A DNA stretch of 64,000 nucleotides from an uncultured Verrucomicrobiae bacterium (GTDB lineage Bacteria > Verrucomicrobiota > Verrucomicrobiia > Chthoniobacterales > JAFAMB01): contig CAWEXO010000011.1 in assembly GCA_963813025.1 (NCBI GenBank), forward strand, positions 490,230 through 554,229, given 5' to 3'. This document shows, piece after piece, positions 8,341 to 62,412 of the stretch (positions are counted from its first letter, which is position 1; each line of letters begins with the position of its first letter). A program made the translations under genes and the position numbers. The notes below the pieces were generated by a model. That model worked only from the letters and a program-made list of their open reading frames with translations. It did not search any database and was not told the DNA's origin.

Positions 8341-9396
8341 TTATCCACCGAGATCTTCTTTGATCGTTTCAACAAAGGCGGTCAGCAACCGCACGCACCG
8401 TTCCACGTCGTTCAAATCCACGAGTTCGACAGGAGAGTGCATGTATCTGAGCGGAATTGATAGAAGAGCGCTGGGCACGCCGGTCCGGCTGGAATAAATC
8501 CGCTCAGTGTCGGTGCCGGGCGAATAGGCTTCGTGCTGGATCGGGAGATCAAGCTGCCTGGCCAAGGCAATCAACCGTTCTACGATTCTCGGATGATTCG
8601 CCGTCCCATGAGTGAGCGAAGGTCCCTGTCCCAGGCGAACTGAACCGTGTTTGTTCTTATCAATACCCGGTGAATCCGTGGCATGCGTGACGTCAAGAAC
8701 AATCGCCGCTTGCGGCTGTAGCCGATAAGCGATCATTTTGGCGCCAGCACCTCCGATTTCCTCCTGAACCGCGTTAACGGCGAGTACGGTCGCGACCGTT
8801 CTCTCCGGGCGGGCCGACAAGCTCTCCAATACCTGGCTGAGAATAAATCCGCCGATCCGGTTGTCGATCGCGCGGCCAACCACTCGACTCCCTGTTAGCT
8901 CTTCGGCCTGGTCAGTGTAGACAGCCGGATGTCCCGGTCGGATTCCCCGTTCCTCGACTTCCGCTCGGCCGCCGGCGCCGATGTCGACAAAGAGTTGATG
9001 CATCTCCGGAATCTTGTCGTCCTGCTTCTCGCGAAGATGAATAGCGGTATTACCGACAATCCCGAGCACCGGCCCTTTGTCCCCAAAAATTTTGAGACGT
9101 TTGCCCCGGGCGATTGCCCAATCACTTCCGCCGATCCTGGTCAAATAGAGATAACCATCATCCGAAATGTTTTGCACCATAAACCCGATTTCATCGGCAT
9201 GCGCCTCCAACATGAGACGGAGGTTCGAGTTTGATCCATGGCGAGTTACCCATGCGTTCCCGTATGAATCGGTATCGACTCGATCTGCCCACTGGCGCGC
9301 ATAATCCATCCAAACCTTTTGACCAGCATTTTCAAACCCGGTAGGGCTCGGCGTGTTGAGCAATTCGAAGAGAAACCGTTTGGCGTCATCATTCAT
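8341..9396 (-). CDS. M42 family metallopeptidase (FrvX/CelM-type aminopeptidase)
   Basis: 351 aa. Motifs LLNTPSPTGFE, MLEAHADEIGFMV, AIDNRIGG, VQEEIGGAGA, HSPVE. Confidence 0.85.
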   Translation of the reverse strand: MNDDAKRFLFELLNTPSPTGFENAGQKVWMDYARQWADRVDTDSYGNAWVTRHGSNSNLRLMLEAHADEIGFMVQNISDDGYLYLTRIGGSDWAIARGKRLKIFGDKGPVLGIVGNTAIHLREKQDDKIPEMHQLFVDIGAGGRAEVEERGIRPGHPAVYTDQAEELTGSRVVGRAIDNRIGGFILSQVLESLSARPERTVATVLAVNAVQEEIGGAGAKMIAYRLQPQAAIVLDVTHATDSPGIDKNKHGSVRLGQGPSLTHGTANHPRIVERLIALARQLDLPIQHEAYSPGTDTERIYSSRTGVPSALLSIPLRYMHSPVELVDLNDVERCVRLLTAFVETIKEDLGG

Positions 9397-9659
9397 TTTG
9401 TTACAGAACAGGGATTACCGCGCTGGTCATTTGTCAACGATGGCGGACAATGGCCGATGACCAATGACCAATGGCCGATGAGCAGCTCGGTCAGGACATC
9501 GGTAACACTATATCGTTAAGATAAGTTTGACTGTTCAATGTGAAAGTTGCACCGATTGGCAAATCTGGCCGGCTCCGTTTTTGCGTTTGACAGGCTGGAG
9601 CGAGGAACGAGCGAACAGTCGATGCCCCCTGCCAGCGCCTTGAGCGCAAGCTCTACTCA

Positions 9660-9869
9660 CTGTTCCATAGGCTCACTCTTTTTTTGGGCATGACCGAAGT
9701 TTACGATGAGATGAATCTGCAGTTCCGGGGCGCTTTGGCGATCAATTTGCTTGAGAAAGTCGCAACCACTCCACATGGGGGTGCTTTCGTTTGGCGAAGG
9801 ATCCCTCGAGGTAACTTCCGGTCGCCAAATAGTCAAGATGCCGCGGCGTTTGTAATCATGACGCCGGAC
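9660..9869 (-). pseudogene. relic of an IS630-family transposase (internal fragment, truncated by the IS630 insertion at 9871)
   Basis: The minus-strand translation is RRHDYKRRGILT...CDFLKQIDRQSAPELQIHLIVNFGHAQKK. It parallels RTHDYYRHGTVTL...EWLRFLKHIDEQTPPQVGLHLLVDNYSAHK of the IS630 copy at 46.6-47.8 kb. The DDE-region motif is degraded and the fragment ends abruptly at the IS630-A boundary. Confidence 0.55.
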
Positions 9870-9927
9870 CTAGTACTTAGTTGCTTTAGTTCTTTATATT
9901 TATGAAAAATTATGATTTGTTGGATGG

Positions 9928-10188
9928 ATGGCAACGGGTCGCATCAAACTTTCTGTGGAAAAGCGCAAGCTCTTGGAGGGTTGGAGTCGAGCGCAACGGG
10001 TCGAACACCGGCTCAAGGTCAGGAGTCAGATTATCTTGAAGGCGGCAGCGGGCTTGAGTGGACGTGCGATTGCCAAGAGCCTGCGCATTCCCGAGGTGAC
10101 GGTGAGTAAATGGCGGCGGCGCTTTGTGCGCCAAGGCCTGGCCGGCTTGGAAGACGCGCCACGCAGTGGAAAGCCGGCCAAGTTATGA
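9928..10188 (+). CDS. IS630 transposase, N-terminal HTH part (orfA; frameshifted relative to orfB)
   Basis: 86 aa. HTH region SGRAIAKSLRIPEVTVSKWRRRF, then LAGLEDAPRSGKPAK, then a stop. The reading frame continues in the +1 frame as YDQMTVKRVL. Confidence 0.8.
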   Translation: MATGRIKLSVEKRKLLEGWSRAQRVEHRLKVRSQIILKAAAGLSGRAIAKSLRIPEVTVSKWRRRFVRQGLAGLEDAPRSGKPAKL

Positions 10189-10993
10189 TCAAATGACGGT
10201 CAAGCGGGTCTTGGCGCTGCTGGATGAAGATCCACCGGCGGGCTACGGGCGCTGGAATGGGCGACTGCTGGCGCAGAGTCTGGCCGATGTTTCCTCCGAT
10301 CAAGTCTGGCGCATTTTGCGCCAACAAGGCATTGAATTGGAACGGCGCCGCAGCTGGTGCATTTCCACCGATCCGGAGTTTGTGCGCAAGGCCGCTGACA
10401 TTGTCGGTCTTTATCTCAATCCGCCCCAGAATGCGCTCATCTTGGCCATTGATGAAAAACCAGCCATTCAAGCCCTGGAAAGAGCCCAAGGTTGGATTCG
10501 CTTGCCCAATGGCAGGGCGCTGACGGGTTTTAGCCACGAGTACAAGCGCCATGGCACCTCCACTCTCTTTGCCGCCCTCAACATTGCCAGCGGCCAAGTG
10601 CAGGCTGGTCATTACCGGCGCCAGCGCCGACGGGAATTCCTGGAGTTTATGAACCAGGTAGTTGCCGGAAATCTCGACAAAGAAATTCATGTGGTCTTAG
10701 ACAACCTTGCGACCCATAAGCCAAAGCAAGATCGCTGGTTGAAGGCTCACCCCAATGTGCATTTTCATTTCACTCCAACCCACGCTTCTTGGCTCAACCA
10801 GATTGAGATCTGGTTTAGTATCTTGAGCCGCCAAGCCCTCCAGGGGGCAAACTTCACCAGCGTGGCAGAGCTGCGCAACGCCATCGACACCTTCATCAAG
10901 AACTACAATAACAATGCGGCTCCCTTCGAATGGACCAAATCCCAGGTACATCAGGGGAGAGTCGCCATACATATAACTAACTTACGCAATTAG
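10124..10993 (+). CDS. IS630 transposase, DDE catalytic part (orfB)
   Basis: Motifs LILAIDEKPAIQALE, HEYKRHGTSTLFAAL, IHVVLDNLATHK, HFHFTPTHASWLNQIEIWF are typical of the IS630/Tc1-mariner DDE domain. The real N-terminus is supplied by orfA. Confidence 0.85.
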   Translation: MCAKAWPAWKTRHAVESRPSYDQMTVKRVLALLDEDPPAGYGRWNGRLLAQSLADVSSDQVWRILRQQGIELERRRSWCISTDPEFVRKAADIVGLYLNPPQNALILAIDEKPAIQALERAQGWIRLPNGRALTGFSHEYKRHGTSTLFAALNIASGQVQAGHYRRQRRREFLEFMNQVVAGNLDKEIHVVLDNLATHKPKQDRWLKAHPNVHFHFTPTHASWLNQIEIWFSILSRQALQGANFTSVAELRNAIDTFIKNYNNNAAPFEWTKSQVHQGRVAIHITNLRN

Positions 10994-11000
10994 GCACTAG

Positions 11001-12875
11001 TTCTCAAAATAAGCGAGTTCCGAATGCGACGCGACGAACTTCCCGTTCGGCCAGGCAAATTCTTAGAAAATGGTGCAAATCCGATTGGTTCTGGCGACCG
11101 AAGGCCCAGGTTTGCTTTTCTCAGGCCAAAACAATGAAAGTTTTTGGAGTTAGTGCGATTTTGGGCGCCGATACATGCCTCGCCAGGGCATAGCTCTGCC
11201 TTGGAAATTTGAGCGTTCCGCCTAGAGTATCGTCAATAGGCCTGCTTCAGGCAGGTGCCATCCGCCGAAGATTTTCCCAGGCAGCGAAGAAGTCTTTTAG
11301 CCAACTGTTGTAACCCATGATCCGATAAATGATCCTCCGACCGCTGCGCACGATCTGTGCCGGCAACAACACAATGGCATGCAGGAAGCGCCGGAACTCC
11401 ATCTGGACTAGCTCCAGCCCCCTTTGCCGATTGGGCATAAGCAGTCCATACCAGGATTTGAGATTCCAGGCCAGGGCACTGATGACCATGTAAGCCCAAT
11501 TACTGAGGAGATCGTCTACCGGCATGCGCATGGCGTTAACCCCATTTTTGAGTTGCTCGATCACATTTTCCTGGTCACACCGCTGGTTGGCCAGCGCCAC
11601 GATCTCTTGGGCCCGATAATTGGTGTGGTTGGTGAGATAGAAGAAGTATTTAATCTCTTCCAAGAGCACCGTTTCCCCTTTCTGGAGGCTGATGTTTTTG
11701 CGCATCACCACCAGCCGATAGCTGCGTCCGCATTTGAGTGGCTGATAATTAAACTCGGCCACGCTTTCGCCCACCAACTTTTTATTCAAGTACCCCTTAA
11801 AGCGCACAATCGCCTCCTTGATCCGATGGGGCTTACGTCGCGGCTCAGTGGCAATTTCATAGCGAGCCAAGCGTTCAAGCGGCTGCCAGCCTGCTTCCGG
11901 CAAGGCTTCGGCCAGTTGCACTACTTTCTGATGAGCATCCATGCCAAAGAGAAATTTGATCCCTTGGCTATCCCAACGATCTAACTCGGCGCTGAGCGTA
12001 AAATCGCTGTCCCCGCGCAGCGTGATCTCACCGGCATGGGGGCGCACTAACTCGATGGCCCGCTCAATCCATGGCACACATCCTTCATGGCTGACGACGT
12101 TGCCCGGCCGATTAACCAGATAAAGCACTTCTCGGGTGTTTGCCAACGAGACAATCAAGGGCGCATAACCCCAGATGCCTTTGTAGGAAAGCCCTACTCC
12201 GCCTTTGCACGCCCCTAAAGTCGGAGCCATTGTGCCATCGATATCAAGAAAGGCTTGGGCAAGAAAAGCCCGAGGCTGCTTTTTCCACACCCGCTGCCGA
12301 GTCGTGTTGATGGCTTCCAGCAAATCCAGAATCGAGCCTTGGTCAAAGCGCCGGGTGAAATCTCCGCTGGTAGTCGGATCAGGGATACGTTGCGCGCCCA
12401 GACCCTCCAGGAAAGCTTCATCGTTGCGCCGCAACTCGATATCTTCCAGCCGTTGGCCATCGAACAGTGCATTGTAGGCCAGGTTCAACACATGATCGCT
12501 TTCGTGATAGGGCAAATGCCGCTTGAGAAGCTGCACCCGCCCATCGATCTCCTCGGCTAATCCTAGCCGCTGCCCCATTAGATGGATCGCGCCAATACCG
12601 CCGTAGTTTACCGCCCGGTTACGTTCAGCCATCTCAAAATGGATGTTGCTGGCACTCAGCATCGGTGTCGGCTGTTCACTCCATCGCCGCTCAGGATCCA
12701 AACGACGTTCGATTCGGCGCTTGCGATTACGCAGGATCTTCGGATAACTTCTACTCACTCGAAATGCCTTTCTTCCTTGGTCTGGTTAGCTTTGCACTTC
12801 CCAGCAAACCAAGCATCGAAGCGCATTTCGAGCTTTTTTGTCCCCTCATGCGGTTAAATCACGCTTCCTTAAGGA
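11001..12875 (-). mobile_element. IS1380-like (IS4-superfamily) insertion sequence, tandem copy 1
   Basis: 1875 bp bounded by CTAG (10997-11000 and 12876-12879). Imperfect terminal inverted repeats: ttctcaaaataagcgag versus the reverse complement of the other end, tccttaaggaagcgtg. About 99.5% identical to the adjacent copy at an offset of 1878 nt. Confidence 0.8.
11247..12758 (-). CDS. DDE transposase, IS1380-like
   Basis: 503 aa. Motifs FLDIDGTMAPTLGACKGGVGLSYKGIWGYAPL, ITLRGDSDF, YFFYLTNHTNY, QRCDQENVIEQLKNG. This resembles the IS1380/ISEcp1-type layout. The family assignment is by eye. Confidence 0.8.
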   Translation of the reverse strand: MSRSYPKILRNRKRRIERRLDPERRWSEQPTPMLSASNIHFEMAERNRAVNYGGIGAIHLMGQRLGLAEEIDGRVQLLKRHLPYHESDHVLNLAYNALFDGQRLEDIELRRNDEAFLEGLGAQRIPDPTTSGDFTRRFDQGSILDLLEAINTTRQRVWKKQPRAFLAQAFLDIDGTMAPTLGACKGGVGLSYKGIWGYAPLIVSLANTREVLYLVNRPGNVVSHEGCVPWIERAIELVRPHAGEITLRGDSDFTLSAELDRWDSQGIKFLFGMDAHQKVVQLAEALPEAGWQPLERLARYEIATEPRRKPHRIKEAIVRFKGYLNKKLVGESVAEFNYQPLKCGRSYRLVVMRKNISLQKGETVLLEEIKYFFYLTNHTNYRAQEIVALANQRCDQENVIEQLKNGVNAMRMPVDDLLSNWAYMVISALAWNLKSWYGLLMPNRQRGLELVQMEFRRFLHAIVLLPAQIVRSGRRIIYRIMGYNSWLKDFFAAWENLRRMAPA

Positions 12876-12879
12876 CTAG

Positions 12880-14754
12880 TCTCAAAATAAGCGAGTTCCG
12901 AATGCGACGCGACGAACTTCCCGTTCGGCCAGGCAAATTCTTAGAAAATGGTGCAAATCCGGTTGGTTCTGGCGACCGAAGGCCCAGGTTTGCTTTTCTC
13001 AGGCCAAAACAATGAAAGTTTTTGGAGTTAGTGCGATTTTGGGCGCCGATACATGCCTCGCCAGGGCATAGCTCTGCCTTGGAAATTTGAGCGTTCCGCC
13101 TAGAGTATCGTCAATAGGCCTGCTTCAGGCAGGTGCCATCCGCCGAAGATTTTCCCAGGCAGCGAAGAAGTCTTTTAGCCAACTGTTGTAACCCATGATC
13201 CGATAAATGATCCTCCGACCGCTGCGCACGATCTGTGCCGGCAACAACACAATGGCATGCAGGAAGCGCCGGAACTCCATCTGGACTAGCTCCAGCCCCC
13301 TTTGCCGATTGGGCATAAGCAGTCCATACCAGGATTTGAGATTCCAGGCCAGGGCACTGATGACCATGTAAGCCCAATTACTGAGGAGATCGTCTACCGG
13401 CATGCGCATGGCGTTAACCCCATTTTTGAGTTGCTCGATCACATTCTCCTGGTCACACCGCTGGTTGGCCAGCGCCACGATCTCTTGGGCCCGATAATTG
13501 GTGTGGTTGGTGAGATAGAAGAAGTATCTAATCTCTTCCAAGAGCACCGTTTCCCCTTTCTGGAGGCTGATGTTTTTGCGCATCACCACCAGCCGATAGC
13601 TGCGTCCGCATTTGAGTGGCTGATAATTAAACTCGGCCACGCTTTCGCCCACCAACTTTTTGTTCAAGTACCCCTTAAACCGCACAATTGCCTCCTTGAC
13701 CCGAAGGGGCTTACGTCGCGGCTCAGTGGCAATTTCATAGCGAGCCAAGCGTTCCAGCGGCTGCCAGCCTGCTTCCGGCAAGGCTTCGGCCAGTTGCACT
13801 ACTTTCTGATGAGCATCCATGCCAAAGAGAAATTTGATCCCTTGGCTATCCCAACGATCTAACTCGGCGCTGAGCGTAAAATCGCTGTCCCCGCGCAGCG
13901 TGATCTCACCGGCATGGGGGCGCACCAACTCGATGGCCCGCTCAATCCATGGCACACATCCTTCATGGCTGACGACGTTGCCCGGCCGATTAACCAGATA
14001 AAGCACTTCTCGGGTGTTTGCCAACGAGACAATCAAGGGCGCATAACCCCAGATGCCTTTGTAGGAAAGCCCTACTCCGCCTTTGCACGCCCCTAAAGTC
14101 GGAGCCATTGTGCCATCGATATCAAGAAAGGCTTGGGCAAGAAAAGCCCGAGGCTGCTTTTTCCACACCCGCTGCCGAGTCGTGTTGATGGCTTCCAGCA
14201 AATCCAGAATCGAGCCTTGGTCAAAGCGCCGGGTGAAATCTCCGCTGGTAGTCGGATCAGGGATACGTTGCGCGCCCAGACCCTCCAGGAAAGCTTCATC
14301 GTTGCGCCGCAACTCGATATCTTCCAGCCGTTGGCCATCCAACAGTGCATTGTAGGCCAGGTTCAACACATGATCGCTTTCGTGATAGGGCAAATGCCGC
14401 TTGAGAAGCTGCACCCGCCCATCGATCTCCTCGGCTAATCCTAGCCGCTGCCCCATTAGATGGATCGCGCCAATACCGCCGTAGTTTACCGCCCGGTTAC
14501 GTTCAGCCATCTCAAAATGGATGTTGCTGGCACTCAGCATCGGTGTCGGCTGTTCACTCCATCGCCGCTCAGGATCCAAACGACGTTCGATTCGGCGCTT
14601 GCGATTACGCAGGATCTTCGGATAACTTCTACTCACTCGAAATGCCTTTCTTCCTTGGTCTGGTTAGCTTTGCACTTCCCAGCAAACCAAGCATCGAAGC
14701 GCATTTCGAGCTTTTTTTGTCCCCTCATGCGGTTAAATCACGCTTCCTTAAGGA
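12880..14754 (-). mobile_element. IS1380-like insertion sequence, tandem copy 2
   Basis: Head-to-tail with copy 1, separated only by CTAG 12876-12879. It ends at CTAG 14755-14758. It differs from copy 1 by a few substitutions (for example A11084 versus G12962) and a T6/T7 run difference (12834-12839 versus 14712-14718). Confidence 0.8.
13125..14636 (-). CDS. DDE transposase, IS1380-like (second copy)
   Basis: 503 aa. Four amino-acid differences from the 11247-12758 product (F/L in NALFDG, HRI/LRV in RRKPHRIKE, K/R in EEIKYFF). Confidence 0.8.
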   Translation of the reverse strand: MSRSYPKILRNRKRRIERRLDPERRWSEQPTPMLSASNIHFEMAERNRAVNYGGIGAIHLMGQRLGLAEEIDGRVQLLKRHLPYHESDHVLNLAYNALLDGQRLEDIELRRNDEAFLEGLGAQRIPDPTTSGDFTRRFDQGSILDLLEAINTTRQRVWKKQPRAFLAQAFLDIDGTMAPTLGACKGGVGLSYKGIWGYAPLIVSLANTREVLYLVNRPGNVVSHEGCVPWIERAIELVRPHAGEITLRGDSDFTLSAELDRWDSQGIKFLFGMDAHQKVVQLAEALPEAGWQPLERLARYEIATEPRRKPLRVKEAIVRFKGYLNKKLVGESVAEFNYQPLKCGRSYRLVVMRKNISLQKGETVLLEEIRYFFYLTNHTNYRAQEIVALANQRCDQENVIEQLKNGVNAMRMPVDDLLSNWAYMVISALAWNLKSWYGLLMPNRQRGLELVQMEFRRFLHAIVLLPAQIVRSGRRIIYRIMGYNSWLKDFFAAWENLRRMAPA

Positions 14755-14755
14755 C

Positions 14756-14854
14756 TAGTGTAGCGTCTCTTAAATAATGGTGAGTCATTTTTGGAGGATT
14801 CCCCAGAAGCGGAACAGATAAAAGTGTCACTATGATTTCAGAGACACATGACTA
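14756..14854. mobile_element. 95-bp MITE (IS630-type, TA-flanked), copy 1
   Basis: Positions 14758-14852 are identical to 47777-47871. The element is flanked by TA inside CTAG on both sides. Terminal inverted repeats are gtgtagcgtctct and the reverse complement gtcatgtgtctct. The left end shares GTC..TTAAATAA with the IS630 copy B end. Confidence 0.65.
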
Positions 14855-14908
14855 GCTTACAGCTCGTTTATTATTACCAGCTATTTAACAAAGATGACAT
14901 TAGTTACT

Positions 14909-15274
14909 TTAGGACGGGAATGTATAGGAGATCGGGAGAAGGTACACGCCACTTACTGAGGGTTTGAATTGCCAGTGCAAGTGTACCCAGCGGGAAGAAT
15001 AAGCTGCCAAGATCGCGCTGGTGGATTCTGCGGTCACCTTTATCATTTTACCCTTCACCACCTGGATGCGAACTTGGACATCGCATTTAAGCTTAAGGGA
15101 GCGTACCTCCTGGGGATAAGTTGGTATTGGGTGCTGGCTGGCAACCCGGTCGAGCGCGATTCCCGTAACGACTAGTGGTTTGAGTTCCGCTGCTAACGAT
15201 TGGTAAGCAGTCGACGAGAAGATAGTGATTGTTATGATCGCGATAAAACTTCGAATAAGCCTGAGTTTTGACAT
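14909..15274 (-). CDS. small exported protein with TonB C-terminal-like domain
   Basis: Best start is MSKLRLIRSF (ATG at 15274), followed by a hydrophobic signal/anchor. The C-terminal pattern PIPTYPQEVRSLKLKCDVQVRIQVVKGKM resembles the TonB_C fold. The region is AT-richer than its surroundings. Confidence 0.5.
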   Translation of the reverse strand: MSKLRLIRSFIAIITITIFSSTAYQSLAAELKPLVVTGIALDRVASQHPIPTYPQEVRSLKLKCDVQVRIQVVKGKMIKVTAESTSAILAAYSSRWVHLHWQFKPSVSGVYLLPISYTFPS

Positions 15275-15395
15275 AGATATGTTATCTCTAATTGGTTCTT
15301 GGTAATTGCACGGTAGGTTACAGCGTGCCGATTTTTTGTCTGTAACCCGAACGGATGAAGGACGACTGGTGCGGTGACCGTGTACAGAGCATGCC

Positions 15396-15523
15396 TTAGC
15401 CATTGATCAAGCGTTTGACGCCTGGCTGAGTTTCATCAAAACTAACAAGATAGCCGAGGCGGAGATTGGCCAGGCGGGTGTACGTCAGAACTTGCTTCGG
15501 GTACAGCCGGGAGCGGCTTTGAT
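15396..15523 (-). pseudogene. C-terminal relic of a GxxExxY / PD-(D/E)XK_3 family gene
   Basis: The minus-strand translation ...YPKQVLTYTRLANLRLGYLVSFDETQPGVKRLING stop matches the conserved tail of that family (QLLxYLKxxxLxLGLLINF...KR). It is preceded by an in-frame TGA and further stops. Confidence 0.4.
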
Positions 15524-16004: not shown

Positions 16005-17372
16005 TCAGCCCTCTCGCTCTTCCCCTGAATCGAGGTTGAGTCCCAACTGAAGGTCGAGTACCGGAATCGTGGGTAGCGAATTCGCACCGATAATCCCCTG
16101 CAGATCCCCGTACATACCTGAGACGCTGTTGAGGACTCCATCGATCTGCTTCTCCCGCGCATTCCAATGGCTGCTAATCGCGCGCTTTTCGCGCTCCAGC
16201 GCCAACTGCATCTGGATAAACGTCTGGAGAATTGCGTTCACCCGTTCGCGGAACTCCGGTCCGGTGAGATACTGATATAGTACGTTCATTTTCTGGTCGC
16301 GCCCTTCGGCCGAGAGTCGCGCATATGCCAGGCTGATGACCTGTTGCCGGAGCACCGTGGCCAGTCCAGGCAGGGCCGTGAGGTCGCAAACCCAGATTCC
16401 TTCAATTTGCTCAAAATGCCGGACGCCGTCCGGCAGAGAAGTGGAGACCAGCACGCCAAACTCCGATTTACCCGCTATCATGTCTTTGCGCACCTTCTCC
16501 AGCCAGCGTTGATTCCAATTTTGCGCGTTTTTTGTTTCCCAAGTGATCGTACCGCAGGTTCGTCCACCGGTTGCCACCACCGTCTGGAGCACGTCCGCGC
16601 CATGCACCCCTTTGGCGATGGCGTGAACCCCATCGGTGGGAAAGCGGGTGTGCAATTCGCGCTCCAAGATCAGCTCGAGTGCCTCCCCCTGCAGTTGCTG
16701 CGAGCCCTGCTCCATTCGTCGGCGCAGATCCTCCGCTGCTAAACGGGCATCATCCCGTTGTTTTTCCAGCTCGGCCTGCTTCAAGCGCAAGGTATCGAGT
16801 TCCGTCTGATATTTTTCGCGAGCCGCCTGGTCCGCCTGGCGGGCAGATTCCCGACCAAGGTTTTCCCTGGTTTCGCAAATCGCTTGGGCGATCGCAGCTT
16901 CTTTCTCGACCTGAAGTTGAGTGACTTTGGCCAAGAGCTCGACCCCTTCCCTGCTCTTTTGCGAGAGCTGATCGGTCAAATTCTGGAGCAAGCTGTTCTG
17001 TTGTTGGAAACGTTCTTCGAACAGTCGTTCCCGGATCTGCGACCGCTCATGCTCTTCTTCAGACGCTTGACGCCGAGCGCGTTCCAACTCGATTCGCGCT
17101 ATGCCCATTAGCCGTTCGTGCTCCGCGCGCGCCTTGAACAGTTGCTCCTGGACGGCACTCAGCTGTTGCTCGTAGCCCTTGGAGAGGTCGGCCACCAGGC
17201 TCGTCCGAACGCTCTCCGAAAACCTGGCTCGCTCTTCGACGAGGTCACGCTGCCTTCGCTGAACAATAGCCTCGCTCAGCGCCTCCCGTAGACGGAAACG
17301 ATGTGCCCGATCGGCTGGGCAAGCAATCTCTTCGTCGAGGCTAATCAAGATGAAATCAGAATCCCCACTCAT
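16005..17372 (-). CDS. DUF2130-family protein (long coiled coil + C-terminal nuclease-like domain)
   Basis: Start taken at MSGDSDF (ATG 17372). About 250 aa of heptad-rich E/Q/R coiled coil. C-terminal motifs GEALELILERELHTRFPTD, KGVHGADVLQTV, GTITWETKNAQNW are typical of DUF2130. Confidence 0.75.
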   Translation of the reverse strand: MSGDSDFILISLDEEIACPADRAHRFRLREALSEAIVQRRQRDLVEERARFSESVRTSLVADLSKGYEQQLSAVQEQLFKARAEHERLMGIARIELERARRQASEEEHERSQIRERLFEERFQQQNSLLQNLTDQLSQKSREGVELLAKVTQLQVEKEAAIAQAICETRENLGRESARQADQAAREKYQTELDTLRLKQAELEKQRDDARLAAEDLRRRMEQGSQQLQGEALELILERELHTRFPTDGVHAIAKGVHGADVLQTVVATGGRTCGTITWETKNAQNWNQRWLEKVRKDMIAGKSEFGVLVSTSLPDGVRHFEQIEGIWVCDLTALPGLATVLRQQVISLAYARLSAEGRDQKMNVLYQYLTGPEFRERVNAILQTFIQMQLALEREKRAISSHWNAREKQIDGVLNSVSGMYGDLQGIIGANSLPTIPVLDLQLGLNLDSGEEREG

Positions 17373-17452
17373 AGAATCAAATCGAGCGCGACTTTGCCGC
17401 CGCACGCTTCTCCATGTTTTCTCTTTAGTCGGTCAGCCGCAAAAGGGAAAGC

Positions 17453-26220: not shown

Positions 26221-26335
26221 GACGGCCTCCGTTCCGCTCACTGAGCGAGGTTCGAAGCGTTTCCAAACGTGACCTGTCCCTTAGAGCGTCCTCAAACGCG
26301 ACCTGTCCCTACAATGCGACAGAGGCGACAGGTCC
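26221..26335. repeat. cluster of GGGGACAGGTC-family repeats, including an inverted copy of the 73-nt unit
   Basis: GACCTGTCCC at 26271-26280 and 26300-26309. GACAGGTCC at 26327-26335. Region 26221-26283 is a diverged reverse-complement copy of the 73-nt unit at 28953-29025. Confidence 0.8.
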
Positions 26336-28706: not shown

Positions 28707-28877
28707 TGGAGAGGCTAGCGGGCGTTAGTACCGGATTTACCACTCGAAGATCGAGCGGCTTCGCGGTTAGATCGTCCCGGACCAGCCCGGCGGTCGTGCG
28801 GCGGTTGCATCGATTCTGCGAACGGGTGCGTCGTTTTCTCCGCCTCCGGAGTGCGCGGCAGACAGAAAGGGGCGGCC

Positions 28878-29307
28878 AAAGGGGACAGGTCACTTGCCGG
28901 CCCGCAACTCCTCATCCATCGCGTAGGGCGTGTGGGCGAAACAGACAGCGTTTAAGGGGACAGGTCATCCGGCGGCAACGCTTCGAACCTCGAAGTCGAC
29001 GCAACAGGGATACGGACGAGGCCGTAAAGTCCGGCTTCCACCCGCTCCACTTGTGACGGGCGGCTAAGGGGGACAGGTCACTTGCCGGCCCGCAACTCTC
29101 CGCCCGTCGAGCGGCGGCCAAGGGGGCAGGTTATCCGGTCCAGCGACCCTCCGCCCCATCGGGTAGCGAGTGCGCGGCTAAGGGGACAGGTCATCCGGCG
29201 GCAACGCTTCGAACCTCGAAGTCGACGCAACAGGGATACGGACGAGGCCGTCCGCGCTACCCTCAAGCGATGCCCTAGAGTCCGGAGTCCACCCGCTCCA
29301 CTTGTGA
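28878..29307 (+). repeat. dense cluster of GGGGACAGGTC-family repeats (two longer unit types, each duplicated)
   Basis: Unit A, aaggggacaggtcacttgccggcccgcaactc, occurs at 28878-28910 and 29066-29098. The 73-nt unit B occurs at 28953-29025 and 29179-29251. The tail gtccgg..tccacccgctccacttgtga occurs at 29029-29056 and 29280-29307. The cluster sits in an 877-bp divergent intergenic region. Confidence 0.9.
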
Positions 29308-46436: not shown

Positions 46437-46610
46437 TAACAGGAGCCGATCGCGAACCGGCTCACTCTTTGCGGAGATCGTGGAAAGACGTTTCAATGAA
46501 GGGCTACGCCTTAACCGCGCCGTGCAAGCGGACCGCCGCGATCGATAAACAGGGCGGCCGAACTTGGGTTCGGCCGCTCTTGGGCGAACTCGTTTTTAGT
46601 GAAGCGGAGC

Positions 46611-47770
46611 TAGTCACCTGTCCGTTAAATAACATATATTATCCGTCAGTCGCGACTGCCCAGGCTTTATTGATCTTACGGAGCACTTCTGCGCCGTCCG
46701 CTCGCCACACGTAGCGTTTGGCCCTTAGATTATGTTGGGCAAGGTAAGCGTCGATCGCCTCGATCAGGACCCGAACGTTCTCAAAGCTTCCTCCTACAAT
46801 AGCTTGCTGCGTAAGGTCCCCGGAAAAAACGCTCGACCAAGTTGAGCCAAGAAGCGCTGGTTGGAGTAAAATGCAGGTGAAAGCGTCGATGGCGTGCCAG
46901 CCAGGCTTTCACCTTGGGATGCTTGTGGGCGGAGTAGTTATCGACAAGGAGATGTAACCCAACCTGGGGCGGAGTCTGCTCATCGATGTGTTTAAGAAAG
47001 CGCAACCACTCTCGATGAGTGTGACGCCGATCGGTGCGCGCGATGATCTTGCCTTGGAGATAATCGAGAGCTGCAAACAGCGTGACGGTACCGTGGCGGT
47101 AATAGTCATGGGTCCGAGTCTGGATGTGACCGGCTCCCAGCGGCAGACCAGGCTGAGAACGGCTCAGGGCCTGAATCTGACTCTTCTCATCGCAGCACAG
47201 CACCAGCGCCTGCTCGGGTGGATTGAGATAGAGTCCCACGATATCCCAGAATTTGGTCTCGAATTCCGGATCGCTGGAGAGCTTGAAAGTCCGGCTCAGA
47301 TGAGGCTTGAGATCGTTGCTCGCCCACAGCTTGTGCACCGTCGACTTACTAGAGGCCCGATTCGCGCGCCATCGTGCGGCAACTCCAGCGCCGCAGATGA
47401 GCCGGGGGTTGCACTACTCGGCTCAAGACGGCCTGAACCTGTTCTGGCGCCAAGGTGCTCGCGCGCCCTCGTCCAGGCGCATCATCCAGTCCGGCTATCC
47501 GCTCCAGGCTAAAGCGCTCACGCCACTTGCCCACGGCCAGCCGGCTCATCTTTAATCGGTGAGCGATCTGTTGATTCTCTAAGCCTTCGCTCGCCAACAA
47601 AATCATTTTGGCTCGCTGCCGATCCCGATAAGGCCCACTACGCGCACGCTCGCGCCGCTCCAACCCCATTCTTTCTGGCTCAGTAAGTTCGATCCGCGAA
47701 GCGACTCTCGACATGCGGCCAAGTTAAAACATTTTTTGGCATTATATGCGACCTTATTTCGAGGACACTA
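46611..47770 (-). mobile_element. IS630-family insertion sequence, copy B (decayed), TA-flanked at CTAG
   Basis: A 1156-bp body (46613-47768) lies between TA 46611-46612 and TA 47769-47770, each within a CTAG. The ends, gtcacctgtccgttaaataa and the reverse complement gtgtcctcgaaataagg, are weakly inverted. The transposase is broken into three frames. Confidence 0.8.
46639..47714 (-). pseudogene. IS630 transposase with at least 2 frameshifts
   Basis: ORF 47349-47714 is the HTH part and ORF 46781-47338 is the DDE part (CCDEKSQIQAL, HDYYRHGTVTLFAAL, LLVDNYSAHK, TPTSASWLNLVERFF). The C-terminal tail IEAIDAYLAQHNLRAKRYVW is in a third frame, ending at 46639. The first shift is at about 47346-47352 and the second at about 46780-46800. 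Confidence 0.8.
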
Positions 47771-47774
47771 GTAC

Positions 47775-47873
47775 TAGTGTAGCGTCTCTTAAATAATGGT
47801 GAGTCATTTTTGGAGGATTCCCCAGAAGCGGAACAGATAAAAGTGTCACTATGATTTCAGAGACACATGACTA
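47775..47873. mobile_element. 95-bp MITE (IS630-type), copy 2
   Basis: Positions 47777-47871 are identical to 14758-14852 and are TA-flanked (47775-47776 and 47872-47873). The element lies 4 nt (gtac) from the IS630-B end. Confidence 0.65.
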
Positions 47874-47958
47874 GACTAGGTACTGCGAGGCTTAGAGCTT
47901 GTGAACCGTCCAATTATCTTCTTCCGCTGAAACTGCTCCCGCCGCTTTGCTAAATGAG

Positions 47959-58908: not shown

Positions 58909-59058
58909 GGATTAACAAATTCCAATTCAAGGGAGTTTAGTGCGCTAGTACCTAGCTGATTTCATTTCACGCTTGCTGACGCAGCTTCCTTCGCGCAATG
59001 CCAGAATTTTTCCGCAACCGAACTGAGGCGTCCTTTTCGCCCGACGATGGGTGAACTT

Positions 59059-59321
59059 GGGGACAGGTCCGAGCCGGAGACGGGTCGAGCCGAAGCGCGC
59101 GAACCTCAGACAGGCCCTTAAAGCGCAAACAGGCCGAGGCTGTCCACGTGACAGCCCTTTTGCTCGAGCGAGGAAAGATCCTGACCGTCAACAAGAACAG
59201 CGCCGCCGATCTGGAAACAGGCCCAAGCTATGGCGGGGACAAGCTATGGCGGGGACAGGTCCTTAAATTAAAAGTGCTGGAAACCCTTTGGGGGACAAAT
59301 CGTCGAACACGCGGACAAGGC
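59059..59321 (+). repeat. GGGGACAGGTC-family repeats and short tandem/direct repeats downstream of the RAYT-like gene
   Basis: GGGGACAGGTC at 59059-59069 and 59251-59261. A 16-bp tandem ctatggcggggacaRg x2 at 59228-59259. Degenerate cores at 59235, 59291 and 59311. A separate roughly 40-nt direct repeat cttttgctcgagc...agatcctgaccgt...aaca occurs at about 59156-59200 and about 59341-59385. Confidence 0.8.
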
Positions 59322-60560: not shown

Positions 60561-60807
60561 TGGTGATAGTAATAACGTAAGTTTTATAAGTTATCAATTT
60601 CAATTGCGGCGTTCGGGGGCGCGCGATCCGAGTGCCTCATGCTTCCCATCCTGCTTATCTGATCTCGAGGTCTCAAGCGTACCTATCCCTCGACTTGTCT
60701 TCGGCGCGGGTGTTCGAAGCGAGGAGCACCTGCTCCCAGAAAGGTCCCTTTCCTGGTCTCCAAAAAGTTTCCTTCGAATTGACCTGTCCCTCGTTTGCCA
60801 GTCCCTC

Positions 60808-61048
60808 GTTTGCCAAAACGGAAACGTATAATCGACGCGCCCGCCAGAGTGGACGCGCGAGACTGTACGTCTCGCCAGATCAGCCACCCCAGGTAGTTGG
60901 GTTGGCGCTGAGTGCCTTGCCTCTGTCCTGTGCACCGCTTACTTTCTGCCGTCGGCAGCTCGTATTTTTTGCGTTGAATGGACCTCTCCCCAAAACAGCG
61001 CATTTGTACCTGGCCAAAGAGAGGTGGACCTGTCCCCAGAACGGCCCC
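60808..61048 (+). repeat. roughly 240-bp dispersed repeat, copy L (ends in a GACCTGTCCCC unit)
   Basis: Aligns with 61942-62199 at about 80% identity by eye. It is preceded by a 15-bp tandem gtccctcgtttgcca x2 (60786-60815) and GACCTGTCCC at 60781-60790. Confidence 0.8.
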
Positions 61049-61245
61049 TTGTCACTTAGTTCAGTCGACAGCCGATCCGTGTATATGAATTCCGGGTTTC
61101 TTCAACTAATCGGCGTACTCGAAAGTCAAAGAACTGCCTCCGGTAAGGATTGGGTCTACGCTGAACACGACCTACCGTCACCTTCTCGAACTTTCGCTTA
61201 GTCCGCTAGTGTTCCTCGATTCCTCAATTTCCCAAGTTAGCGAAG

Positions 61246-61785
61246 CTACAAACGTATCCCAACCGCAGCGTTCTCTTCGGGAGTGGCGTTCCAGTAATTA
61301 TATTTTGCGGAGACGCTCTCGTAGCACGAAAGGAAGTGCGCAAGTTCCTCGGCGGTCACTGGTTGAGGTGTAGCCGCAACCGGTCTCCCGACCTCTTGAA
61401 AGAATTGAGCCAGTCTTGTGGTCGTGATGATGAATGCGACCAGAGGCTCGCTGGAAACGTTGCGCCAGGCGTGCCCTGCGCCACTAAGCACGTGGAGGTG
61501 ATCGCCCGCTTTTACCACAATCCATTCATAGCCCTGTGTGCCTTGCCTCAGCGCCTTTACCTCGCCGGAAATGACAAAGAAGTCCTCCGTGTCAGGGTGA
61601 CCGTGAAGTGGAACTGAGACGATAGGCGGGATCTCTCCCCTCAGCACGCAGAAATCAATGCTCGCCTCTTGCGGCGACGTCAGAAACTCCATCGTTGGTC
61701 CGAAGAGTCGACGCGCAGGCCGGTTGTGGGATTTACTTCGGTACTCATATGGCTCTATCCTTGGTTTCATGGTTCTAGTGCTCAT
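61246..61785 (-). CDS. cupin domain-containing protein
   Basis: 179 aa. The cupin motif pair is PLHGHPDTEDFFVISGEV and GDHLHVLSGAGHAWRN. Confidence 0.75.
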   Translation of the reverse strand: MSTRTMKPRIEPYEYRSKSHNRPARRLFGPTMEFLTSPQEASIDFCVLRGEIPPIVSVPLHGHPDTEDFFVISGEVKALRQGTQGYEWIVVKAGDHLHVLSGAGHAWRNVSSEPLVAFIITTTRLAQFFQEVGRPVAATPQPVTAEELAHFLSCYESVSAKYNYWNATPEENAAVGIRL

Positions 61786-61941
61786 CTCAGACAGTATATG
61801 TTAACGGGCGGACCGTCAGACAAAGATTAAACGGAACGGCGCTAGCTGCTAAGCCCGACCGTTTTCATGTAGCTTGGCAAAAGCTCACGGATTAAGCGCT
61901 CGGCTCTGTTGACCGTTTCATCATCGAATAAACTGTGCCTT

Positions 61942-62199
61942 GTTTGCAAAACGGAAATGTATAACCGACACGCGCGCCGGAGTGGACGAGCGAGACCGTA
62001 CGTCTCACCAGGTCAGCCGCCTGCAGGTAGTTAGGTTGGCGCTGAATGCCTTTGTCTCTTTTGCACCGCTTACCTCTTGCGATCGGCGGCCGGTTTGGTT
62101 TGCGCCGAATTGACCTGTCCCCAGCGGCCAATTTTGACCTGTCCCCAGAACGGCCCCTCCCTGACCCAAGAGAGGTGGACCTGTCCCCAGAACGGCCCC
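61942..62199 (+). repeat. roughly 240-bp dispersed repeat, copy R (same orientation as copy L; runs into the 87-bp tandem array)
   Basis: Shared blocks include aaaacggaaaYgtataa, gagtggacg, gagacYgtacgtctc, caggtagttRggttggcgctga, tgcaccgctta, and gagaggtggacctgtccccagaacggcccc. Confidence 0.8.
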
Positions 62200-62286
62200 T
62201 CCTGTCCCCAGCGGCCAATTTTGACCTGTCCCCAGAACGGCCCCTCCCTGACCCAAGAGAGGTGGACCTGTCCCCAGAACGGCCCC
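62112..62286 (+). repeat. 87-bp tandem repeat x2, each unit carrying three GACCTGTCCCC cores
   Basis: Cores at 62112, 62136 and 62178 repeat at 62199 (partial), 62223 and 62265, an exact 87-nt offset. One further core occurs at 62309-62319. Confidence 0.9.
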
Positions 62287-62412
62287 TCTGTTATGGAATC
62301 GCTTAGTAGACCTGTCCCCTAGCCGGGGCGGCGCCCCATGTTTGCTGTTCGGACAGCAGATCGAGCAGAGCTTTTTGCATTTTCGATTCTTTGAAGCCTC
62401 GGATCCAAGGTC

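Follow-up and report, generated by a model that had tools for sequence, protein, structure and literature searches.

Background

Insertion sequences (IS) of the IS1380 family, as catalogued in ISfinder, are ~1.55-2.0 kb long, carry short terminal inverted repeats beginning with CC and duplicate 4-5 bp of their target, and elements of the IS5 group use YTAR/CTAG targets and duplicate 3-4 bp. Two individual members of the IS1380 family have duplications of 5 bp: IS1247 (PMC3281130) and ISEcp1, the latter at AT-rich sites such as TATGA (PMC2887853). For IS630, Table 1 of PMC2577343, drawing on Tenzen and Ohtsubo 1991, gives CTAG as the target and a duplication of 2 bp. Here, we analyzed a stretch of 64,000 nucleotides from an uncultured Verrucomicrobiae bacterium (assembly GCA_963813025.1, contig CAWEXO010000011.1, positions 490,230 to 554,229; hereafter "the window"), in which elements of the IS630 and IS1380 families and a miniature inverted-repeat transposable element (MITE) stand directly side by side. 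Very likely, the nest piled up at a single CTAG in a self-reinforcing way, through two unrelated transposase families with the same rare palindromic target.

The IS630-type elements of the nest closely follow described systems. Like IS630 of Shigella sonnei, the IS630/Tc1/mariner elements and ISY100, they combine a DDE_3 transposase that has an N-terminal helix-turn-helix (HTH) with a length of ~1.1 kb and terminal inverted repeats, and the clade of the element that we call IS630-A also shares with IS630 a TA duplication, a preference for TA within CTAG, and short MITE derivatives. We found no essential difference from IS630, except that both larger copies in the window, IS630-A (frameshifted) and IS630-B (decayed), are defective.

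The IS1380-like elements resemble IS1380, IS1247, ISPme1 and ISEcp1 in having one long DDE transposase, a length of ~1.9 kb and short imperfect inverted repeats that start with CC. Unlike these relatives, their clade duplicates 6 bp with a near-invariant CTAG core. The clade thus falls outside the 4-5-bp duplication used to describe the family, while the homology of its transposase is unambiguous. The window transposase is also distant in sequence, with only 22-25% identity to the nearest plasmid-borne family members. A full-text literature search returned no paper linking IS1380 with CTAG; set against the two members cited above and the value listed for the family, the 6-bp variant with a CTAG core appears to be new within the family, a modest novelty. 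As in the IS5 group, a palindromic CTAG-like target is duplicated on insertion and the site is regenerated, but the transposase belongs to another family (IS5-type transposases are DDE_Tnp_1), the duplication has another length, and the nest holds no IS5-group element. Nested IS clusters and "safe-haven" insertions likewise gather several elements at one place without disrupting a host gene. In contrast to such clusters, the elements described here lie between, rather than inside, one another, and their ends all remain intact, since the target they share coincides exactly with the borders of the elements.

CTAG at every border of the nest

The nest begins at a truncated gene fragment and contains, in order, IS630-A, two IS1380-like copies and a 95-bp MITE (Table 1). 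A first-pass annotation, made by a model from the letters of the window alone, had proposed this order and these families, and NCBIfam and Pfam matches bear the families out. The transposases of both IS1380-like copies match NCBIfam NF033539 (295 bits; cut-off 180) and Pfam DDE_Tnp_1_4 (PF13701, E 2e-31), and two open reading frames (ORFs) of IS630-A, 9928-10188 for the HTH half and 10124-10993 for the DDE_3 half, match NCBIfam NF033545 (201 bits), PF13358 and HTH_23/29/28. The same annotation had placed a CTAG at every junction, and all five are present, at 9870-9873, 10997-11000, 12876-12879, 14755-14758 and 14852-14855. Its element limits needed a small correction: the true ends of the IS1380-like copies lie 1-2 nt inside those first drawn, and IS630-A proper has the limits given in Table 1.

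Next, we asked how often CTAG occurs in the window as a whole. We counted 60 occurrences in the 64 kb, against 244 expected from base composition and 78 expected under a second-order Markov model; relative to base composition, CTAG is the most under-represented 4-base palindrome of the window. Only 60 of the 1,814 TA dinucleotides in the window lie within a CTAG. Because CTAG occurs at about 1 per 1,000 positions, its presence at 5/5 junctions is far beyond chance. A search of 9000-15500 against Rfam found no family match.

Table 1. Coordinates of the nest and of related features in the window (positions are those of the window).
Feature	Position	Strand	Description
IS630-type DDE-region gene fragment ("relic")	9681..9869	-	Ends exactly at the nest border; weak tblastn match
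Junction CTAG 1	9870..9873		Target C, duplicated TA (9871-9872) and first base G of IS630-A
IS630-family element A (IS630-A)	9873..10997	+	1125 bp; ends GTAC...GCAC; inverted repeats 22/30; TA at 9871-72 and 10998-99
Hexamer ACTAGT with extra T	10996..11001, T at 11002		Left copy of the IS1380-like target duplication, 1-nt excess
IS1380-family copy 1	11003..12874	-	1872 bp; intact 503-aa transposase gene, 11247-12758
Hexamer ACTAGT	12875..12880		Common to copies 1 and 2; left half of the copy 2 duplication
IS1380-family copy 2	12881..14753	-	1873 bp; intact 503-aa transposase gene, 13125-14636
Hexamer ACTAGT	14754..14759		Right half of the copy 2 duplication; includes the left TA of the MITE (14756-14757) and its GT
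MITE, IS630/Tc1 type	14758..14852	.	95 bp; inverted repeats 20/30; TA at 14756-57 and 14853-54; no ORF
Junction CTAG 5	14852..14855		Last base C of the MITE, duplicated TA and target G
IS630-family element B (IS630-B)	46613..47768	-	1156 bp, defective; TA within CTAG at 46610-46613 and 47768-47771
Layout beside IS630-B	47769..47879		TA-GTAC-TA, MITE copy 2 (47777-47871), TA-GAC-TA-G

A six-base duplication in the IS1380-like clade

To define the ends and the target of the IS1380-like element, we scanned one genome per species for relatives and obtained 80 loci at 54-87% amino acid identity. Their hosts are mostly Verrucomicrobiae metagenome-assembled genomes, with others in Scalindua, Nitrospinia, Nitrospiraceae, Acidobacteriota and further groups. 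CTAG stands before the element in almost every one of these loci. The base between CTAG and the conserved end varies among copies within one genome that are 99.8% identical; we therefore assign this base to the flank, so that the element itself runs from CC to GG. In the orientation of the transposase, copy 1 starts CCTTAAGGAAGCG... and finishes ...CGCTTATTTTGAG. The window ends can be given as CCTTAAGGAAGCG and CTCAAAATAAGCG, and CC is found at both ends in the large majority of relatives.

With the ends set at CC...GG, we tested for target duplications in the 59 relatives that had both flanks. A 6-bp direct repeat was perfect in 33/59, compared with 0/59 at n=3, 4, 5, 7, 8 or 9. The relatives carry 14 different NCTAGN hexamers, with the CTAG core present in 66/73 left flanks and 63/66 right flanks, and the 33 reconstructed targets show no extended conserved motif beyond NCTAGN. 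These flanks show that elements of the clade run from CC to GG, insert strictly at CTAG and duplicate the 6 bp N-CTAG-N. The 4-bp CTAG duplication first suggested for the IS1380-like units thus gives way to one of 6 bp.

A protein search then led us to five places in European Nucleotide Archive (ENA) assemblies that hold the same IS1380-like element at 97.5% nucleotide identity. The four complete copies are bracketed by ACTAGT on both sides in L163, L166 and L162b and by ACTAGA on both sides in L164. Copy 2 of the window lies between two ACTAGT hexamers, a perfect 6-bp duplication. The source genome has further copies, P0002-P0004, whose NCBI contigs are between 163 kb and 1.02 Mb long.

The choice of hexamer may not be entirely free. 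We counted 5 uses of ACTAGT, where the local background predicts 0.9, and 9 of ACTAGA/TCTAGT, where it predicts 3.2; these small numbers hint at a preference for A before and T after CTAG, which is inseparable here from retention. The ends of IS630-type elements create exactly these half-sites, A before and T after CTAG.

Some irregular ends in related copies deserve mention. In relatives L030 and L068, CTAG lies two bases, not one, from the element end, which can be compared with the extra T at window position 11002. A near-identical copy in L165 (at 1836) is missing its first base and, at the same end, shows no CTAG: catgatg runs directly into CTTAAGG. This suggests a deletion or rearrangement. 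In L162, the final ~28 nt of an IS1380-like copy are absent, and a 104-nt insert stands in their place at 8588-8691; its inverted ends are 12 nt long (AGTAAGTCTGAAG...CTTAGACTTACT). The insert directly adjoins the ACTAGT hexamer of a second copy that is 82% identical to the window element, so that L162 holds another compound nest.

Rebuilding of CTAG by IS630-type elements

We examined IS630-A in the same way, using 80 metagenomic relatives at 60-88% identity. Nearly all of them read C-TA-GTAC...GTAC-TA-G: the left TA is preceded by C in 59/62 and the right TA followed by G in 69/71. This agrees with the published target rule of IS630 and with the first-pass annotation, which had IS630 target CTAG and duplicate its TA. 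The four IS630-type elements of the window (IS630-A, IS630-B and two MITE copies) all lie in the C-TA-G pattern. Because these elements start with G, finish with C and insert in C-TA-G, CTAG is rebuilt at both of their borders. This rebuilding on both sides by G...C ends follows from the sequence and is implicit in the known IS630 target rule; we found no paper that states it. The transposase gene of IS630-A is split by a 1-nt insertion near 10183 (GCC AAG T TAT GAT, compared with GCC AAA TAT GAT in its relative L082), and L082 and L083 each have a single ORF of 354 aa. Judged by its reading frames, the window copy is probably inactive or non-autonomous.

The 95-bp unit at the right end of the nest is a MITE of the IS630/Tc1 type: it is short, lacks an ORF, has inverted repeats and TA flanks, and occurs in copies. 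A second copy at 47777-47871 is identical at 95/95 positions, and a copy in L164 (89% identical) again adjoins the same IS1380-like element. When we performed blastn with the MITE against the 80 genome loci of IS1380-like relatives, L001 alone matched. Among the elements compared, its ends best match those of IS630-B (16/26). We considered and rejected the possibility that the IS1380-like element had captured the MITE in the manner of a transposable module (TMo), as ISEcp1 or ISPme1 take up neighbouring DNA; in such a module the duplication encloses the IS together with the captured 3' flank. The duplications bracket the IS alone, both for window copy 2 and in L164, and the MITE lies on the side upstream of the IS1380-like transposase gene.

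The second MITE copy is part of a second, smaller nest at 46611-47879, which consists of IS630-B, whose transposase gene is both split and cut short, followed by the spacer GTAC, the MITE copy itself and the spacer GAC, with CTAG at every border. The two spacers belong to a set of CTAG doublets with the structure TA + 2-5 nt (G..C) + TA, found at 47768-47777, 47871-47879, 2686-2693 and 58945-58955 (CTAGTACTAG, CTAGACTAG, CTAGCTAG and CTAGTACCTAG). Across the window and the 80 loci, CTAG pairs 4-6 nt apart number 11, against ~1.4 expected. ISY100 cleaves 2 nt inside its 5' ends (PMC2170065). Because cleavage of this kind would leave such doublets, the GTAC and GAC inserts and the other doublets may be excision footprints of elements with GT...AC ends.

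Proposed order of insertion

Taken together, the two target rules suggest how the nest may have been built. The flank statistics show that elements of the IS630 type, here IS630-A and the MITE, insert at the TA of C-TA-G, duplicate that TA and rebuild CTAG on both sides. For the IS1380-like element, the 59 relatives and the four near-identical copies show a 6-bp staggered cut centred on CTAG, by which N-CTAG-N is duplicated and one target becomes two. In the nest, IS630-A and the MITE would first have come to share one TA, forming ACTAGT from AC, TA and GT. An IS1380-like copy would then have entered this hexamer, and a second, slightly different copy would have entered one of the two resulting hexamers, giving the final layout of IS630-A, ACTAGT(+T), copy 1, ACTAGT, copy 2, ACTAGT/MITE.

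The junctions retain several marks of this order. All three hexamers are ACTAGT; the leftmost starts with the end of IS630-A (..GGCAC) and the rightmost finishes with the start of the MITE (GTGTAGCG..). In the hexamer at 10996-11001, AC is the end of IS630-A, TA (10998-10999) is the right-hand TA of that element, and GT follows. If both IS1380-like copies are cut out in silico, each together with one hexamer, and the stray T is dropped as well, the remaining sequence is ...GGCAC-TA-GTGTAGCG..., in which IS630-A and the MITE have a single TA in common. We infer that the IS630-type elements came first and the IS1380-like elements after them, because the reverse order would give ACTAGC (ccggAC-TA-GCttacag), which is not seen. 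The earlier count of at least four successive insertions at the same few nucleotides holds, and this reconstruction divides them into two of IS630 type followed by two IS1380-like ones.

The insertions would probably be neutral and so retained. As the duplicated 6 bp take in two terminal bases from either neighbour and the TA between them, each resident element would keep its TA and both ends, and no host gene would be damaged. CTAGs elsewhere are few and often lie in genes. Neutral retention, combined with a doubling of the target at each event, would make the rich get richer at element junctions, which is not a property of the chromosomal position.

Several points weigh against this reconstruction or limit its detail. 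In ~40% of the related IS1380-like copies, the flanks differ at one or both N positions. We attribute these mismatches to recombination between copies or to later neighbouring insertions, as candidate causes. In the window itself, the duplication around copy 1 is imperfect: its right flank is ACTAGT, and its left flank is ACTAGT followed by the extra T at 11002. Within the IS630-type pair and within the IS1380-like pair, the sequence is compatible with either order. Finally, the outer flanks of the nest may not have been contiguous originally, which makes the "single original CTAG" a reconstruction.

The last point concerns the relic to the left of the nest. Residues 74-139 of the IS630-B transposase align with 9681-9869 at 30% identity over 69 aa (tblastn, E 1e-3), and there are weak colinear matches to the IS630 transposases of L066, L034 and L036; the same interval has no Pfam or NCBIfam match. 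The first-pass annotation had called 9660-9869 an IS630 relic cut off by the nest. The truncation at the nest border is confirmed, while the assignment to IS630 is tentative and applies to 9681-9869 alone, the part that aligns. The remainder of the relic is absent to the right of the nest, where a TonB-like gene is found instead, 53 nt away. Since the truncated relic has no continuation there, deletion or recombination has probably been part of the history of the nest, and the empty site that had been proposed in silico, ccggacCTAGcttacag, is probably not ancestral. Exact-protein look-ups for the flanking genes at 8341-9396 and 16005-17405 returned no match, and they yielded no orthologous empty site.

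Alternative explanations

The pile-up could instead reflect a hot spot bound to this position, through DNA structure, a bound protein, or the context of replication or transcription, and independent of any regeneration of CTAG. Four elements and a relic within ~5 kb would fit such a hot spot, as would the long history of insertion at the locus that the relic suggests, but we consider it unlikely. The elements' own target rules explain every junction, and nothing beyond NCTAGN is conserved in the 33 reconstructed targets. Moreover, similar abutments are found in the second nest of the window as well as in other genomes and at unrelated loci. In L164, which has no other sequence in common with the window, an IS1380-like element adjoins the MITE, and only the IS lies within the ACTAGA duplication. 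L165 holds a direct tandem of IS1380-like elements that are only ~90% alike, with ACTAGT between them and a MITE-like end after them. IS630 genes directly adjoin an IS1380-like element in L017, L034, L036, L061, L066 and L074. In an ungapped scan, at least 12 of 126 flanks scored above the 99% null for a terminal inverted repeat that begins with the TA of the neighbouring CTAG. Because the same arrangements recur at unrelated loci, regeneration of the site is favoured over a local hot spot. The first-pass annotation had left these two options side by side; the creation of new CTAG sites by IS ends fits the data, and the strong local hot spot does not account for abutments elsewhere.

A second possibility is that the two IS1380-like copies arose in place, either as a tandem duplication by unequal crossing-over between hexamers or as an (IS)2 dimer such as IS30 or IS21 produce. 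In favour of such an origin, both copies lie in direct orientation with the 6-bp duplication alone between them. Yet they differ at 12 positions (11 substitutions and 1 indel in 1,872 bases, 99.4% identity), and in L001, an independent Logan contig of short reads (ERR11594400), a sequence that departs from copy 2 at only 3 positions runs into the same MITE start. Further, L165 shows the same layout with elements only ~90% identical, which cannot have arisen by duplication. (IS)2 dimers are unstable, whereas these copies had time to diverge. On the non-identity of the copies and the L165 analogue, we rejected a dimer or active junction, and an origin by duplication in place is, overall, quite improbable.

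The same observations bear on the assembly. Assembling 1.9-kb repeats that are 99.4% identical is difficult, and the nest could in principle be an expanded repeat or a joining of separate loci. However, the copies carry distinct substitutions, the junction between copy 2 and the MITE is found in the independent data set, and similar tandem or abutting arrangements are present in other assemblies. All the junctions also follow the duplication rules of the elements, unlike chimeric joins. Because the copies differ and the L001 junction is independent, a fresh duplication or a simple expansion during assembly is unlikely, and we regard an artefact of any kind as very improbable.

Hardly credible, lastly, is the reading in which the IS1380-like element ends at the CTAGs and duplicates 4 bp: CTAG does lie 1 nt from each element end, as in the window, but even within a single genome, near-identical copies differ in the base that separates it from the CC...GG ends, the left base outside CTAG equals the right base next to the element in 33/59 copies, and no copy matched at n=4 (0/59). 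We rejected this reading, and likewise CTAG as part of the element.

Implications for IS islands and annotation

A pile-up driven by regeneration of CTAG would explain in simple terms how IS islands can grow where no special hot spot exists: each insertion copies a rare target, and insertions at the borders of resident elements are harmless. This branch of the IS1380 family is widespread in bacteria of soil and sediment but little studied, and its border rule (CC...GG ends, a 6-bp N-CTAG-N duplication and a CTAG core) allows element ends to be called to the base. For assembly and annotation, the nest means that near-identical copies in tandem, six bases apart, can be real. The nest itself is an ordinary consequence of two target rules of known type and does not overturn the current understanding of transposition.

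We also considered that the IS1380-like clade may have evolved a preference for the borders of IS630-type elements (ACTAGT, ACTAGA/TCTAGT), using the junctions of other transposons as harmless landing pads. This is possible, though doubtful. If true, the excision footprints of IS630-type elements (CTAGTACTAG, CTAGACTAG) would multiply such landing pads, and the two families would together build and enlarge IS islands in CTAG-poor genomes.

A dispersed repeat in the window

Finally, we observed a dispersed short repeat with the core GACCTGTCCCC, for which the window has 18 matches with at most 1 mismatch, compared with 0.9 expected. Its sites fall in 26271-26334, 28881-29192, 59059-59261 and 60781-62319. 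They include an exact 87-bp tandem duplication at 62114-62287, and longer units of 52-78 nt are found at 28870-29307. The core resembles ends of the IS630-B type (GTCACCTGTCC; in L012, GTGTCCTGTCCCC), and this is a resemblance only.

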